A program made the translations under genes and the position numbers. The notes beneath the pieces are model-generated. The model saw only the letters and a list, made by a program, of their open reading frames with translations. It searched no databases and was not told where the DNA came from. 64,000 nt of DNA from Thermodesulfobacteriota bacterium (GTDB lineage Bacteria > Desulfobacterota_D > UBA1144 > Nemesobacterales > Mycalebacteriaceae): NCBI GenBank assembly GCA_965205855.1, contig OZ242184.1, forward strand, positions 640,001 to 704,000. Reading direction: 5' to 3'. Position 1 is the first letter of the stretch, and the number at the start of each line of letters is the position of its first letter. Positions 22,573 to 46,898 of the stretch are shown here, in pieces.

Positions 22573-23607
22573 ATGTACAAAAAAAGATTGCACTTTTTCT
22601 TTTTGGCAATTGTTTTTGCTTTTCCGGTTCTTACCTTCGGGGAAGATTCATCTTCTCCGTTTGACGGAGCTTACTTCGGAATTGACAGCGCTTTTGTGTC
22701 AAGCAGGTCCGAAGGGCAGGTGGGACCGCTTAACGCTGCCACCAGCGTTCCTGTTCCGGCGGGAATGCTATCGGGAAGAATACCGGCGCCGGAATTGGAA
22801 GCACTAATAACGGGACTGCAAATGCAGGGACTTGTGCCACCGGCAGTAGACCCGGCAAATCCGGCGCCGAACCTGATTCTTCCTCTTCCGGTTTCGGCTT
22901 CATTCGGGCCGTTTCCGTTTGCAGGCACGGATAATCTTCCCGGAGGCTCGCTTTTTGCGGGTTATGGAAAAACTTTCGGCAAATTTTTCGTCGCGGGAGA
23001 ATTTGTCGGAAGTTACGGAAGTTACGACAATACGAATGCGTTTGGCAGCCCCAATTTTACTTCCGACATAGATATTACTCAGGGGCATTTTGGCATAATC
23101 TCACGTCTGGGTTTTCTGATTAGCAGAAACCTGCTCGCATACTCAACCCTCGGTTGGGGGCGCAGTTGGATTGAAGCGGAGGGAACGGTTCATACAATTT
23201 CCTTTTCCGGGCAGATACCAAATCCTACAGACCCTACGGGGCAAACTTTGATTCCGGTGAGCGCTAATGAACCTCTTAACCAGTCCATAAAAAGCGATCT
23301 TGTTTATGACGGTATTCAGTTTGGTATCGGGCTTGAATACGCTCTTGCCGACCTTGTTGAACGGCTGGACAACTTTTCCGTCCGTTTGGGGTATTCAAGA
23401 ATAGAGTATAGAAGGGAAAACTTTTCCTACAATGTTGGCGGTAACGGACCCCTGATGCTTACGGTCAACGCTCCTCTTGACCCCACTCCCGGGGCTGCCC
23501 CTGTGCCGTTAGATGTTACCGTTGAAGACAATAGCATACCAGCGCAAGTCAATCCCGGTGTGCATGTTGTTTCTCTGGGGGTTTCATACAGAATTGGAAG
23601 TTTCTAA
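22573..23607 (+). CDS. outer-membrane beta-barrel protein (Omp25/OmpA-TM-like) with Pro-rich loop insertions
   Basis: Signal peptide, PFDGAYFG, GGSLFAGYG, RLGFL..LAYSTLG, GIGLEYAL, terminal F. Confidence 0.7.
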   Translation: MYKKRLHFFFLAIVFAFPVLTFGEDSSSPFDGAYFGIDSAFVSSRSEGQVGPLNAATSVPVPAGMLSGRIPAPELEALITGLQMQGLVPPAVDPANPAPNLILPLPVSASFGPFPFAGTDNLPGGSLFAGYGKTFGKFFVAGEFVGSYGSYDNTNAFGSPNFTSDIDITQGHFGIISRLGFLISRNLLAYSTLGWGRSWIEAEGTVHTISFSGQIPNPTDPTGQTLIPVSANEPLNQSIKSDLVYDGIQFGIGLEYALADLVERLDNFSVRLGYSRIEYRRENFSYNVGGNGPLMLTVNAPLDPTPGAAPVPLDVTVEDNSIPAQVNPGVHVVSLGVSYRIGSF

Positions 23608-23650
23608 CCACAAGCTGAATGTAAAACCTCTGTTTTCGAGGGTTCGCACG

Positions 23651-24469
23651 TTGTTTGCCGCGGCTGCGTTTTCTCTGACAGCCGCTTTTGTGTCCGCATC
23701 CGGCGGTGCGCCCGAAGTTACCCTCGCAAGTATTTACAAAGGCGGCACTGATGTTTCCTCTTACCTTGTGAGCGAAAAACTGGACGGGGTTCGCGCCTAC
23801 TGGGACGGGGAAAAACTTGTTTCGCGCCGGGGGAATGTTTTTTTCCCTCCCGATTGGTTCACAAAGGGTTTTCCGTCCGAGCCGATGGACGGGGAGTTGT
23901 GGGTTGCCAGAAACAGTTTTGAGCGGACGGTTTCAATCGTCCGCCGCGGTGCTCCTCATAACGGGTGGAAAGATGTCAAATACATGGTTTTTGACCTTCC
24001 GGGACGCAAAGGCGGATTCCAAAAGCGGTTCAAGGTTTTGGAAAGGGTTATTGGCGCGGCGGGCAATTCGCGCCTGCGGGCTACCCGTCAGTTCAGAGTT
24101 TCCGGTGAAGCGGAGTTAATGCGCGAACTTGAGCGCGTAACCGCGTCTGGCGGGGAAGGGTTGATGCTTCATAAATCGGACGCTCCTCACAGAAGCGGCA
24201 GAAGCGGAGACTTACTGAAGCTCAAGAAATTTTACGATGCCGAGGCGGTTGTTGTGGCTCATAATCCGGGAAAGGGAAAATTTCACGCAATGATGGGAAG
24301 CGTAACGGTTGAGACGCCCGAAGGCGTCCGTTTCAGAATCGGCACAGGGTTTACCGATAAACAAAGAGCAAATCCTCCCGCAATTGGAAGCGTGATTACT
24401 TACAAATACAGAGGATTTACACGGAAAGGAAAGCCGAAGTTCGCGTCTTTCTGGCGTGTCAGGAATTAA
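23651..24469 (+). CDS. ATP-dependent DNA ligase, minimal Lig E type (start uncertain)
   Basis: SEKLDGVRAYWDG (KxDG motif), DGELW, GEGLML, LLKLK, OB fold FRIGTGFTD; hydrophobic N-terminal segment. Confidence 0.9.
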   Translation: MFAAAAFSLTAAFVSASGGAPEVTLASIYKGGTDVSSYLVSEKLDGVRAYWDGEKLVSRRGNVFFPPDWFTKGFPSEPMDGELWVARNSFERTVSIVRRGAPHNGWKDVKYMVFDLPGRKGGFQKRFKVLERVIGAAGNSRLRATRQFRVSGEAELMRELERVTASGGEGLMLHKSDAPHRSGRSGDLLKLKKFYDAEAVVVAHNPGKGKFHAMMGSVTVETPEGVRFRIGTGFTDKQRANPPAIGSVITYKYRGFTRKGKPKFASFWRVRN

Positions 24470-24486: not shown

Positions 24487-25647
24487 TTATTTCCCAAGCA
24501 AAGCGACAACGCAAGTGATTCCGTCCATCGCCGGTTGGGCTCCGCCCATTGTTTCTATCATTCCAACTTTCGCGTCCTTGACCTGCCTTTTGCCGGTTTC
24601 TCCTCTCAGCTGGCGGACAATTTCCGCGATTTGAAGAAGACCCGTTGCTCCGACCGGATGACCGCGGGAAAGCAATCCGCCTCCGGGATTAACGGCAACC
24701 TTGTCTCCGCCGACCCATGTGCTTTGTTCGTCAATCAAACGCGCGCCTTCGCCTTCCTTGCAGAAACCCAGAGCTTCGGTAACCATCATTTCGGCGATTG
24801 AAAAAGCGTCGTGGATTTCACACACATCCACATCATCGGGTCCCAGTCCCGACATTTCGTAGGCAAGGTTTGCGCTCCTTGTAACATTTTCCGAAGGCGC
24901 GCAGGTAAGACCCTTGGGACTTGAGTATTTGCCCGACTGCGACACGCAACCGAGAACTTTTATCGGGGCTTTGTTTTTCGCGAGTTTTTTCACCTGATCT
25001 CCGGAGCAAAGAACCGCTGCCGCCGCCGCATCTCCAACGGGGCAACACTGGTTGCGCGTGAGCGGGTCGGCTATAAGCGGAGAGTCCAGAACGCTCTCAA
25101 CCGTTTCTTCCTTACAAAACTGAGCGTCCGGATTCATTGTCGCGTGATGTCTGCTTTTTACCACAACTTTGGCAAGCTGCTCTTTTGTAACACCGTATTC
25201 GTCCATATATTTGCTTGCCCGCATCGCGTAAAGCGCGGGCATTCCCATTCCCATCGCGACCTCAATGTCATCTTCCTCAAGAGGGAGAGGGCCGCCCGAG
25301 AGAACCTTGCTCAGATTCTCAACTCCGAGAGCGAGCGCTATATCCTGTTGTCCGTAGGCGATTGTTCTCCATGCTTCCCAGAATGAAAGGGTTCCGCTTC
25401 CGCACGCACCCTCAACATTAATTGTCGGCTGTCCGACAAGTCCGATTTCTTTCATCGTTCTCTGCCCGACACCCATTCCCTGGTAGACATGTCCGCAAAA
25501 AACTATTTCAATCAAACGCGGGTGTATTTCCGCTTCCTGTATCGCTTTCCACGCGGCTTCTCTTCCGAGAATATGCGCCGCTTTGTCGGGAAATTTTCCG
25601 CAAGGCGTATTTCCGACTCCCAAAATATAGACATCTCTCAAAGACAT
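24487..25647 (-). CDS. thiolase-family protein (SCP2/lipid-transfer type)
   Basis: NVEGACGSG, CCPVGDAAAA, EIHDAF, VNPGGGLLSRGHPVGATG. Confidence 0.9.
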   Translation of the reverse strand: MSLRDVYILGVGNTPCGKFPDKAAHILGREAAWKAIQEAEIHPRLIEIVFCGHVYQGMGVGQRTMKEIGLVGQPTINVEGACGSGTLSFWEAWRTIAYGQQDIALALGVENLSKVLSGGPLPLEEDDIEVAMGMGMPALYAMRASKYMDEYGVTKEQLAKVVVKSRHHATMNPDAQFCKEETVESVLDSPLIADPLTRNQCCPVGDAAAAAVLCSGDQVKKLAKNKAPIKVLGCVSQSGKYSSPKGLTCAPSENVTRSANLAYEMSGLGPDDVDVCEIHDAFSIAEMMVTEALGFCKEGEGARLIDEQSTWVGGDKVAVNPGGGLLSRGHPVGATGLLQIAEIVRQLRGETGKRQVKDAKVGMIETMGGAQPAMDGITCVVALLGK

Positions 25648-43669: not shown

Positions 43670-44371
43670 GTGAGAGAAATAAATCCGTTGTTCCAAAAGG
43701 TTCTTCCTCTGTTGTGGAGTTTGACCCTCAAGGGCATAAAGAACTTGTTTTAAGAGGGCTTTCAGATATTGAGGCGGTTGAGGGTGTTTCCTTTCCACTT
43801 ACTAAAGAGTTTTGGAAAAAAGCGACATTGGAAGAAGTAGAGGGTTTGATAAATAGAGGCGGCAGATGTGAACGCAAGGAATAAATACGGCTGGACGGCT
43901 CTGATGGATGCGGCATCTAACAACAATAACGCTGAAGTTACCACAGTTCTCATTCAAAACGGCGCAGATGTGAACGCAAGGGATAAAAAAGGCAACACGG
44001 CTCTGAGGATTGCGGCATTGGACAACAATAACGCTGAAGTTACCACAGCTCTCATTCAAAACGGCGCAGATGTGAACGCAAGGGATAAAAAAGGCAACAC
44101 GGCTCTGAGGATTGCGGCATCTAAGAATAACCCTGAAGTTATAACAGCTCTTATTAAAAGAGGCGCAGATGTGAACGCAAGGAATGAAGGCGGCAAGACG
44201 GCTCTGAGGATTGCGGCATCTAAGAATAACCCTGAAGTTATAACAGCTCTTATTAAAAGCGGCGCAGATGTGAACGCAAGGGATGAAGACGGCAAGACGG
44301 CTCTGATGGATGCGGCATCTAACAATAACCCTGAAATTGCACAAATTCTCAAAGAGTCTGGGGCTAAGTGA
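43666..44371 (+). pseudogene. ankyrin-repeat protein interrupted by a +1 frameshift
   Basis: ATGA overlap with the upstream gene; AGA GGC G GCA GAT at 43855-43867 versus GGC GCA GAT in the other four repeats; removing one G gives a single 234-aa ORF. Confidence 0.85.
43858..44350 (+). repeat. tandem 99-102 bp ankyrin-coding repeats (5 units)
   Basis: GCAGATGTGAACGCAAGG recurs five times. Confidence 0.92.
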
Positions 44372-44652: not shown

Positions 44653-45306
44653 TTACTTCAAGACCACTCCCGTTTTCTCACTCCAAAGCAACAAATCAAT
44701 CTCATCAATATCAAACCCGTTCCGTTTCGCGTAGCGTTTTAATTTCCCTTCAATCTCAACATACCGCTTCCCATTTGTCGGCGGTTTCGGGTCGTCAACA
44801 ACCTTTAACTCAAACAGACAGTTCATTATGTGCTTGTCCAAAATCGCGTAGCCGGAAAAACCTATGTTTCGCAGGAAGTGACTCGCCTCTTTGAAGCCAA
44901 TGCCCTTTATGTCTCTGTTTGCCGCGAAAAACTCCCGCCTTTCGTTCGGGGTTTTGAAGGAAAGAATCAGGTCTTTCATTTTCAACCCGTGAGTTTCGGA
45001 AAGGTAGTCTCTTGTGTGTAGAAGATAACGCGCTCTCTCATTGGGAAATCTGTGTGCTCCGTTTTTAATGAGCAACTTTGAAAACTGTTTGTCCGATTTC
45101 GCGGAAAACATAACGGGACGCACGGCTTCAATGGATTTTATTCCCATCTTCGCGCTCGCTCCGGCGGTGAATATGCAAAACGCGAGCTCCTCAAATAATT
45201 TCCTGTCATCCGCCCGTTTAATTATTTTGCGAAACTCAGAGAGTTTTGCGCGTATCTCTTTCCGCTTCTCGGGCAGAGATTTTTTCAGTATTTTTGTTGT
45301 CGTCAT
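44653..45306 (-). CDS. 8-oxoguanine N-glycosylase/DNA lyase (OGG2, archaeal/Thermotoga type)
   Basis: FEELAFCIFTA, HRFPNERARY, KGIGFKEASHFLRNIG, AILDKHI, C-terminal Lys. Confidence 0.88.
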   Translation of the reverse strand: MTTTKILKKSLPEKRKEIRAKLSEFRKIIKRADDRKLFEELAFCIFTAGASAKMGIKSIEAVRPVMFSAKSDKQFSKLLIKNGAHRFPNERARYLLHTRDYLSETHGLKMKDLILSFKTPNERREFFAANRDIKGIGFKEASHFLRNIGFSGYAILDKHIMNCLFELKVVDDPKPPTNGKRYVEIEGKLKRYAKRNGFDIDEIDLLLWSEKTGVVLK

Positions 45307-45317
45307 TAAAAACGGGC

Positions 45318-45355
45318 AAAAAAAAAACCGGCGGGTTTTACGCCGCCGGTTTTTT
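45318..45355. terminator. intrinsic terminator after the thiolase gene
   Basis: A-run-CCGGCGG-loop-CCGCCGG-T-run immediately after the stop at 45359. Confidence 0.88.
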
Positions 45356-45358
45356 GTT

Positions 45359-46762
45359 TTATGACTTTCTCGGTCTTCCGGGCCCGCGACGCTTCGCGCC
45401 CGATACCTTCGGTCTTCCGGGTCCGCGTTTTGCCTTCATACCCGAACCTTTGGGTCTTCCGGGCCCGCGTTTTGCTCCGGGCTTTGGTCCCGGTTTCGCT
45501 TTCACGCCCGAACCTTTGGGTCTTCCGCGTCCGCGTCTTCCCGAAGAGGAGGGAGCCGAAACCGAAGAACCACCCAGTTTCTCAACTATCATTGCTATTC
45601 CCATTCCGCCGCCAATGCACAGAGCGGCAAGCCCACGTTTTGCAGAACTTCTTTTTCTCATCTCATGCAGAAGTTTTACAAGAACAACCGTTCCCGACGC
45701 TCCGATCGGATGGCCAAGCGCAATGGCACCTCCGTTCACGTTGGTTTTGCTTTCAGGAATCGGCAGGTCGCTCAAAACCGCGAGAGACTGAGCCGCAAAC
45801 GCCTCGTTAAGCTCAAACAGGTCTATATCGTCAAGAGACATGTTCGCCTTGTCCAGCGCTTTGCGGATTGCCGGCACGGGTCCGACTCCCATTATTGAAG
45901 GGTCAACCGCCGCGACCGCGTAAGACACAATTGCCGCAAAAGGGGCAAGCCCCAACTGCTTTGCTTTTGTTTCGGAAGTTACAAGCGCCGCCGCCGCTCC
46001 ATCGTTAATTCCCGAAGCGTTGCCCGCCGTTACGGTTCCGCCGACTTTGAACACCGGACGCATTCCCGCAAGAGCTTGCTGAGTAACCTCAGGGCGCGGA
46101 TGCTCGTCAACCTTGAAGTCAATCGGGTCCTGCCGTCTCCGAGGAACCGACACGGGAACAATTTCATTTGTGAACCTTCCGGACTCCAGAGCGGCTTTTG
46201 TTTTCATCTGGCTTTTATACGCAAATTCGTCCTGCTCCTCTTTTGACAGATTATAGGATTCCGCGAGGTTTTCCGCCGTAACTCCCATGTGGTAGTCATT
46301 GAAAACGTCCCACAGTCCGTCATTTACCATTCCGTCTATCAGCTCGTCCTTCGGCATAGCCATTCTGTAGCCGTATCTGGCTTTGGTCAGATAAAACGGC
46401 GTCTGGCTCATATTCTCTATTCCGCCCGCCACTATCGTGTCCGCGTCTCCGGCTTTTATCGCCTGCGCCGCAAACGCGACACTCTGAAGCCCCGAACCGC
46501 ACACCCTGTTGAGAGTTATGCCGGGAATGTCCGTTCCAAGACCGGACTTGACCGCGACCTGTCTTGAAGGGTTTTGCCCGAGACCGGCGCCGAGAACATT
46601 TCCCATTATGCAATCATCAACCTCTTTGGGGTCAATTCCCGTTCCGGCGATAACGTCATTGACAACTTTTACTCCCAGTTCAACTGCGGGAATGTCTTTC
46701 AAGGTTCCCCCGAATCCGCCGATTGCCGTTCTGACGGGGTGGGAAATTACAACTTTTTCCAT
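45359..46762 (-). CDS. acetyl-CoA C-acetyltransferase (thiolase) with C-terminal AT-hook tail
   Basis: Catalytic motifs [25 protein letters not shown]; then a 71-aa K/R/G/P-rich tail with four GRP motifs; SD GGAGG. Confidence 0.95.
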
Positions 46763-46898
46763 TAAATAATCCTCCTTCTATATTGTTCAAATTATCGGTA
46801 ATTTGATACGCAAAATTTACACAAATTAATTTAATAACACAAAAACAAAATTATAAATAAATCGATTTGCTGTTAGTTTAACGGCGGAGATTTATTCC

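Follow-up and report, generated by a model that had tools for sequence, protein, structure and literature searches.

A thiolase with a conserved, putatively DNA-binding tail of AT-hook motifs in a genus of bacteria with small genomes

RESULTS

A thiolase gene with an in-frame C-terminal extension

The window analyzed here is the whole of a 64,000-nucleotide (nt) stretch of contig OZ242184.1 (assembly GCA_965205855.1), which comes from a genome of 1.40 Mb that is 98% complete and has a GC content of 49.7%. We focused on a thiolase gene located at 45359..46762 on the minus strand. The gene encodes 467 amino acids (aa) and ends with a TAA stop codon at 45359-45361. Residues 1-396 (45575..46762, minus strand) were assigned to an acetyl-CoA C-acetyltransferase core on the basis of Pfam and NCBIfam matches and an alignment with the solved thiolase 4n44. 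The translation showed that the remaining 71 residues (397-467; 45362..45574, minus strand) form a tail, which consists of a Gly/Ser linker and four GRP-containing AT-hook motifs separated by linkers of Lys, Gly, Pro, and Ala. A Shine-Dalgarno sequence read from the DNA, GAAGGAGG, is located at 46771..46778 (minus strand), 8 nt upstream of the ATG start codon, and a terminator-like hairpin with a T-run, bidirectional in shape, is located directly 3' of the TAA stop codon (45322..45355, minus strand). Within this element, the hairpin followed by its T-run was placed at 45345..45329.

The core looked like a complete and apparently catalytically intact acetyl-CoA C-acetyltransferase, as judged from its sequence. 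Residues 4-264 matched Pfam Thiolase_N (PF00108; 306.1 bits, cut-off 26.4), residues 273-395 matched Thiolase_C (PF02803; 161.6 bits, cut-off 27), and the NCBIfam acetyl-CoA C-acyltransferase model TIGR01930 was matched with 473.4 bits (cut-off 240.55). The best solved relative was 4n44 (E = 4.5e-144), which aligned with query residues 1-395; of its 400-residue chain, the aligned part extended as far as position 391. The solved biosynthetic and acetoacetyl-CoA thiolases (4n44, 4o99, and 1dlu) shared end-to-end alignment, the Cys/Asn/His/Cys set, and the two-domain fold with the core; in contrast, none of them showed a counterpart to the hook tail, as the listed matches ended at query residues 393-397. 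Cys88 (in the NRVCGSG motif at 46490-46510, minus strand), Asn319, His351, and Cys382 are the positions with established catalytic roles in thiolases. None of the four varied in either of two alignments, one of 15 and one of 120 homologues, which bore out the claim of a first-pass annotation of the window that the catalytic motifs were intact. In an AlphaFold2 model built from a 120-sequence alignment, the predicted local distance difference test (pLDDT) score of the core was mostly 80-98. The N terminus was a standard thiolase start without a signal peptide-like extension.

The tail is cationic and predicted to be disordered

The first-pass annotation had described the gene as a thiolase with a 71-aa in-frame extension that carried four AT-hooks, and the open reading frame and its translation were exactly as described. 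The tail continues in frame after ...MIVEKL (residue 396). Hook 1 (RRGRGRPK, residues 409-416; 45515..45538) has the canonical R-G-R-P core and is followed by hook 2 (KRGPGRPK, residues 431-438; 45449..45472), hook 3 (KRGPGRPK, residues 445-452; 45407..45430), and hook 4 (RRGPGRPR, residues 458-465; 45368..45391), all on the minus strand. Each of the four motifs had the features by which AT-hooks are recognized, namely, a G-R-P core flanked by Lys or Arg, often with Pro, in a disordered context.

The 72 residues that follow ...MIVEK included 23 Lys or Arg residues and no Asp or Glu residues, for a net charge of +23, and the calculated isoelectric point was 5.5 for the core alone versus 9.7 for the whole protein. 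In the AlphaFold2 model, residues 398-467 lacked secondary structure and had pLDDT scores of about 30. Thus, the tail was predicted to be intrinsically disordered and strongly cationic. The annotation had also stated that the motifs were encoded by repeated DNA units. This was partly borne out: the tail DNA contained three copies of a 54-nt unit with 61-83% identity, but Tandem Repeats Finder reported nothing.

The fusion is present in an assembly from a second study

Contigs assembled by Logan from runs X1 and X2, which belong to one study that is possibly the source of the genome, covered all 1701 nt compared with no differences. In run X4, which belongs to another study, a 444-nt contig covered 45318-45760, including the whole tail, again with no differences. 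Because the tail was identical in the assembly of a second study, it was not an assembly artefact. A six-frame scan of the whole 1.40-Mb genome with a regular expression for the hook identified one other matching frame, which contained a single isolated match, and a search of the six genomes of the genus with the tail as the query returned the thiolase gene as the only match in each. Together with the terminator behind the stop codon, these results agreed with the annotation's view that the tail was not chance read-through. The fusion of thiolase and hook tail was confirmed to be real, in frame, and properly terminated.

The hook tail is restricted to one genus and was probably gained in situ

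In our genome collection, the family to which the window belongs consists of a single genus, represented by six species genomes whose sizes are 1.2-1.6 Mb. The hook tail was present in all six, with GRP counts of 4, 5, 10, 3, 12, and 22, so it was retained in the close orthologues, which was a check that the annotation had proposed. The cores were 83-89% identical within the genus. The six closest database homologues (79-83% identical overall in BLASTP searches, 444-629 aa) all had hook tails, and one of these tailed homologues (P0007) was labelled Candidatus Mycalebacterium zealandia, whose genus is placed in the class Dadabacteria. From the seventh homologue downward, identity was at most 76% and the proteins were 395-412 aa long. 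All complete tails, from the six species genomes and seven database proteins, shared a ...GRP[RK][KG]S end; the terminal ...GRPRKS of hook 4 was common to three of the other species.

A thiolase orthologue was found in 99 of the 101 genomes of the order. We fetched the 24 best loci from outside the genus, of which 23 were readable (L042 was missed by the motif filter), and all 23 readable thiolases ended 0-5 residues after VEK. The other best matches from outside the genus that reached the C-terminal end stopped at query residues 395-415, except for the one in genome G021. Among the top 120 homologues, 112 proteins from outside the genus had no more than 8 residues after the end motif, except for P0011, which had 17. 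The two exceptions (locus L056 on contig C39 of G021, and P0011) carried plain 17-residue Lys/Arg tails without hooks, which may be independent or precursor basic tails.

None of the tail searches returned a thiolase from outside the genus. The window tail as the query matched the genus thiolases and five unrelated proteins. A search of 1.84 billion representative sequences gave seven weak matches, none of which was a thiolase; this search says little because tailed thiolases cluster with tail-less representatives. A look-up of the tail in the ESM Atlas gave no usable match.

A divergently oriented ddl gene was located next to the thiolase gene at all five of the other loci in the genus and at 19 of the 24 loci outside it. 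This conservation indicated that the thiolase locus is orthologous across these genomes, and the synteny points to a gain of the tail in situ at the ddl-thiolase locus. Across the order, the thiolase core was 73-76% identical versus 33-50% for Ddl, so the thiolase is under strong constraint. We found no donor hook gene beside the thiolase in other families; the 25 loci inspected gave two single chance motifs in frames other than the thiolase.

Directly downstream of the thiolase terminator, the window contains a gene for an Ogg-HhH 8-oxoguanine DNA glycosylase (44653..45306, minus strand). A downstream Ogg gene was present at four of the five other genus loci and at none of the 24 loci outside the genus. 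At the fifth (G001), the Ogg gene follows the tail on a second contig: the thiolase gene of this genome is split over the ends of contigs C12 (L020) and C46 (L047), whose sequences overlap, and its tail has 22 hooks. Since this 22-hook tail breaks short-read assembly, fusions of this kind may be under-counted in draft genomes.

Hooks are constant, whereas linkers diverge

The linkers differed between species (for example, RMVAEETAAPA in one of them), whereas the hook sequence K-R-G-[P/R]-G-R-P was constant. To look for decayed hooks without selecting on GRP itself, we scored [K/R/G]RG anchors in eight tails. Every anchor was followed by PGRP or RGRP or was part of a GRP, and the number of decayed hooks was zero. 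Arg was nearly restricted to the hooks and Lys to the linkers; in P0005, for example, there were 25 Arg residues, of which 12 were the central Arg of a GRP, and 45 Lys residues. At the DNA level, the GGA and AGA codons of the hook core were nearly fixed in 35 hook units, and the Pro codons located two codons on showed synonymous variation (13 CCC, 9 CCG, and 13 CCT). Hook units within a species were often identical in DNA sequence. On these sequences, the constancy of the hooks and the partition of Arg and Lys form a pattern that is not predicted by charge alone.

Similar hook arrays are found mainly on DNA-transacting proteins

When the tail of the hook-rich relative P0002 was used as the query, 45 proteins were matched, three of which were thiolases of the genus and 42 of which were not thiolases. 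DDE transposase domains were present in 14 of the 45 and linker-histone domains in five, three of which also had a precomputed Pfam AT_hook assignment. Single matches were an SLX1/GIY-YIG nuclease, a ParA-like ATPase, an AAA ATPase, a DUF4282 protein, an M17 aminopeptidase, and one protein that we took to be ORC1-like from its precomputed domains. The remaining 17 had no Pfam domain. RNA-binding domain families were not found among the Pfam-annotated proteins with similar arrays. DNA binding was favored because the proteins that bear similar arrays are for the most part transposases, linker histones, and a ParA-like ATPase. The annotation had proposed that the enzyme binds the nucleoid or RNA, and DNA or RNA binding is the best reading of the sequences, in which the motif was kept, the linkers diverged, and the carriers of similar arrays were mostly DNA-transacting.

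Three other proteins with similar units deserve mention. P0126 is a stand-alone protein of 116 aa with five repeat units that are identical to those of one relative's thiolase tail. P0153 is a metagenomic M17 leucyl aminopeptidase of 543 aa with a three-hook C-terminal tail; like the thiolase, it is a housekeeping enzyme with a C-terminal array in the same ...KRG[RP]GRPKGSG... style, but it belongs to another enzyme family and another lineage. This likeness suggests that hook tails may be a recurrent way of tethering enzymes. P0134 is a eukaryotic linker-histone protein that matched the tail of a relative's thiolase with E = 4e-11. Its tandem KRGRGRPRK and KRGPGRPRK units with Ala/Pro/Ser linkers resemble the thiolase tails, but its domain is that of a chromatin protein of a eukaryote, and common descent is not implied for such short, low-complexity repeats.

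The region upstream of the thiolase gene is unusually A/T rich

The ddl-thiolase intergenic region (46763..46898) is 136 bp long, has a GC content of 25%, and contains A/T-only runs of 15 and 16 nt. It is a candidate promoter and, by inference, a candidate target of the AT-hooks. Only 0.03% of the 136-bp windows in the genome, which correspond to 16 regions, had a GC content as low, and only five places in the genome, this region among them, had two A/T-only runs of at least 14 nt within 150 bp. The longest intergenic A/T run was 15-17 nt at all six loci in the genus versus 6-12 nt at 17 loci outside it. This gave a weak hint that the thiolase may bind its own A/T-rich promoter region; the hint is weak because the loci are kin and promoters are A/T rich anyway. 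Genome-wide, A/T-only runs of at least 6 nt occurred at about 10.7 per kb, so potential hook targets would be plentiful, and runs of at least 8 nt were 2-3.6 times denser outside long open reading frames.

Metabolic and nucleoid context

PhaM and PhaF have basic tails that link polyhydroxyalkanoate (PHA) granules to the nucleoid, and the annotation had compared the thiolase tail to these. The likeness is a basic tail on a protein of acetyl-CoA and polyhydroxybutyrate metabolism. The difference is that here neither of the PHA synthase models (PF07167 and TIGR01836) matched the 98%-complete genome, and the analogy was abandoned together with the idea of a PHA-granule tether. The thiolase scored 361.9 bits against the PhaA equivalog model NF042967 (cut-off 740) and was likewise far below the cut-off of the BktB equivalog. 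A mevalonate or ketone-body context was also unsupported, as 3-hydroxy-3-methylglutaryl (HMG)-CoA reductase and CoA-transferase were not found in the genome. The HMGL-like matches were frames of 531-670 aa, which we took to be too unlike the presumed size of HMG-CoA lyase to be lyases, and the 3HCDH_N model gave weak Rossmann-type matches only. The genome contains three enoyl-CoA hydratases and two acyl-CoA dehydrogenases. Because these enzymes are present, a role of the thiolase in beta-oxidation or amino-acid catabolism is probably the most economical reading.

The genome also contains a second, SCP-x-type thiolase-like gene. This gene (Thiolase_C_1 type, 386 aa; 24487..25647, minus strand) adjoins an ATP-dependent DNA ligase-like gene (23513..24469, plus strand) with DNA_ligase_OB_2 and DNA_ligase_A_M domains.

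Three HU/IHF-type genes were identified in the genome, and we rejected the idea that the tail replaces a lost HU. Outside the window, at G000:C1:970235-970792 on the minus strand (L055), we noted a frame of about 180 aa that has no Pfam match and a histone H1-like end rich in Lys, Pro, Ser, and Thr; from its composition, it could be a lineage-specific nucleoid protein.

DISCUSSION

Comparison with known systems

The first-pass annotation had called the tail HMGA-like and had pointed to CarD. In a study of CarD, the HMGA/CarD type of domain is described as AT-hooks together with a contiguous, highly acidic region, and the hook domain of CarD is described as conferring DNA binding and as being replaceable by a histone H1-like domain (PMC2919716). 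In Myxococcus xanthus CarD, a C-terminal array of four AT-hooks gives DNA affinity to a bacterial protein body that does not itself bind DNA, and the histone H1-like domain of Anaeromyxobacter CarD shows that hook tails and basic tails are interchangeable (PMC2919716). The first feature resembles the arrangement proposed for the thiolase, and the second parallels the short Lys/Arg tails of some thiolase orthologues. There are also two differences: the body of CarD is a transcription factor domain that interacts with RNA polymerase, not a metabolic enzyme, and CarD has an acidic region, whereas the thiolase tail has no Asp or Glu and its hooks are mostly of the P-G-R-P form.

The term HMGA-like therefore failed in its strict sense, because the tail has no acidic region. 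We also looked at the core for an acidic counterpart. The net charge of the core was -6 (genus range, -1 to -7) versus a mean of -5.7 (standard deviation, 3.4) for tail-less relatives. This is within the tail-less range, and HMGA-like autoinhibition through acidic compensation in the core was not seen.

Trigger enzymes such as PutA, BirA, and Escherichia coli PepA are metabolic enzymes that also bind DNA. The thiolase resembles them in that an active enzyme is joined to a putative nucleic acid-binding element, by which metabolic state might be connected to DNA. It differs in that the trigger enzymes use folded, sequence-specific domains or surfaces with known regulons, whereas the thiolase tail would be a disordered array of low specificity.

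Bacterial AT-hook and H1-like tails have been known chiefly from proteins of transcription and chromatin, of which CarD is an example. In the present case, the AT-hook motif is located on a core metabolic enzyme and was kept through speciation. Full-text searches of the literature did not turn up any thiolase described as having AT-hooks or as binding DNA, which is in line with the annotation's remark that it knew of no fusion of this kind. The thiolase is thus an undescribed variant and not a categorically new mechanism.

A model for the tailed thiolase and its alternatives

We propose that an ancestor of the genus, a member of the Dadabacteria with a reduced genome, lost the thiolase stop codon at the conserved ddl-thiolase locus and then acquired a disordered, cationic C-terminal array of AT-hooks of the K-R-G-[P/R]-G-R-P form. 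The hooks would contact A/T-rich DNA by insertion into its minor groove. Thiolases of this class form tetramers, as known from solved relatives; on that basis, the enzyme would become a multivalent, nucleoid-bound particle with up to 16 hooks in the case of the window protein, as estimated in the annotation, and between 12 and about 90 hooks among the species of the genus. The enzyme would thereby be tethered to or concentrated on the chromosome and might, in addition, bridge DNA or contact its own promoter region, which is unusually A/T rich, and catalysis would probably continue in a beta-oxidation-type pathway. We lean, by a little over even chances, toward the central claim of this model, namely, that a disordered, multivalent array of hooks tethers an active thiolase to A/T-rich DNA.

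Several of our results weigh against this claim or limit what it can explain. Three of the four hooks are of the P-G-R-P form and lack the first Arg of the canonical core, which is present in the R-G-R-P core of the fourth. Scans with the Pfam AT_hook model (PF02178), which has 13 positions and a cut-off of 17.4 bits, gave no match to the tail and none to the hook-rich relative P0002, even with an E-value limit of 10. This null result is weak evidence because the scan was also silent on other hook-rich proteins (P0121, P0122, and P0126-P0130), so such a short model is insensitive under these conditions. As for the form of the hooks, RGRGRP and RGPGRP hooks are mixed in the linker-histone protein P0134, which scored 50.4 bits against the AT_hook model, so P-G-R-P appears to be a natural variant within certified arrays. 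The identity of units within a species implies that part of the uniformity of the motif stems from recent duplication, and the 7-fold variation in hook number (3 to 22) implies that dosage is not tightly constrained. The six genomes represent one genus and therefore count as a single evolutionary gain of the tail, not as six observations that are independent of each other. Given the three HU/IHF-type genes, no nucleoid protein is missing that the tail would have to replace. A/T-rich promoters are common for other reasons, and our comparison of A/T runs is one between kin. Finally, DNA is not the only candidate ligand, since a disordered tail of positive charge would bind RNA, polyphosphate, or anionic lipids as well.

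The last point leads to two alternatives, each of which we consider unlikely. The tail might bind mRNA or rRNA or might drive condensates with RNA, so that the thiolase would be associated with RNA and not with the nucleoid. The tail has the right character for this, being cationic, disordered, and rich in Gly, Pro, and Arg, and AT-hooks can also bind RNA; we put the odds low because the annotated carriers of similar arrays are mainly DNA-transacting proteins and include no RNA-binding family. With a similarly small chance, the tail might be a generic polycation that binds anionic membrane lipids or polyphosphate, or a bristle for solubility or spacing, without any sequence-specific reading by the hooks. 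Net tail charges of +18 to +69, the near absence of acidic residues, the free variation of tail length and linker composition, and the plain Lys/Arg tails of some orthologues in other lineages (17 aa in G021, and P0011) all fit this idea, but electrostatics leaves the invariant K-R-G-[P/R]-G-R-P sequence and the division into Arg-rich hooks and Lys-rich linkers unexplained.

Two further explanations seem very improbable to us. If the tail were a functionless read-through product that is tolerated and changes in size by slippage, then hook copy numbers of 3 to 22 and near-identical DNA units within species would be expected, and both were observed. On the other hand, every complete copy has an open frame up to the shared ...GRP[RK][KG]S end, decayed hooks were absent, the motif is unchanged between cores that are 83-89% identical, and a terminator directly follows the new stop codon. 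We give equally little credence to the idea that the tail is a eukaryote-like module directed at an animal host, in which case the protein would be released and the hooks would serve as an address for the nucleus or chromatin. One relative (P0007) bears the label of a symbiont genus, and a eukaryote-like ankyrin-repeat gene (43868..44371) is located two genes away. A released protein is hard to reconcile with the standard thiolase N terminus, which lacks a signal peptide-like extension, or with a strongly conserved housekeeping core at a conserved locus.

Tethering of an active thiolase to A/T-rich DNA thus remains the reading that we prefer. An extended version of it can also be put forward, although we regard it as speculative and, taken as a whole, improbable. 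In this version, the thiolase tetramer would be an abundant, true nucleoid-associated protein of these symbionts with reduced genomes, and the 12 to about 90 hooks of each particle would bridge A/T-rich DNA, including its own exceptionally A/T-rich promoter. Binding of acyl-CoA or CoA, or acetylation of the enzyme, would alter occupancy or bridging, so that carbon status would feed directly into chromosome compaction and transcription. The thiolase would then be a trigger enzyme with a disordered tail, for which the one hint is the A/T-rich promoter region of its gene, and it would exemplify a wider, undescribed habit among uncultured bacteria of hooking CoA-metabolizing enzymes to DNA.

If the tail binds DNA, the thiolase would provide a clear natural example in which a disordered, multivalent array tethers an enzyme to a bacterial chromosome. 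It would then be relevant to the spatial organization of metabolism in small genomes, to nucleoid proteins that moonlight, and to the ways in which acyl-CoA metabolism might be linked to DNA.

Other features of the locus

The ankyrin-repeat gene mentioned above is on the plus strand and encodes a protein of 167 aa that matched Ank_2 with 187 bits. Its repeats are near-identical and also open long antisense frames. On the other side of the thiolase gene, the Ddl proteins of the genus (L017, L018, and the window protein, 46899..) have a short basic N-terminal extension that is rich in Lys, Arg, and Gly and that precedes the conserved VAVFFGG motif.

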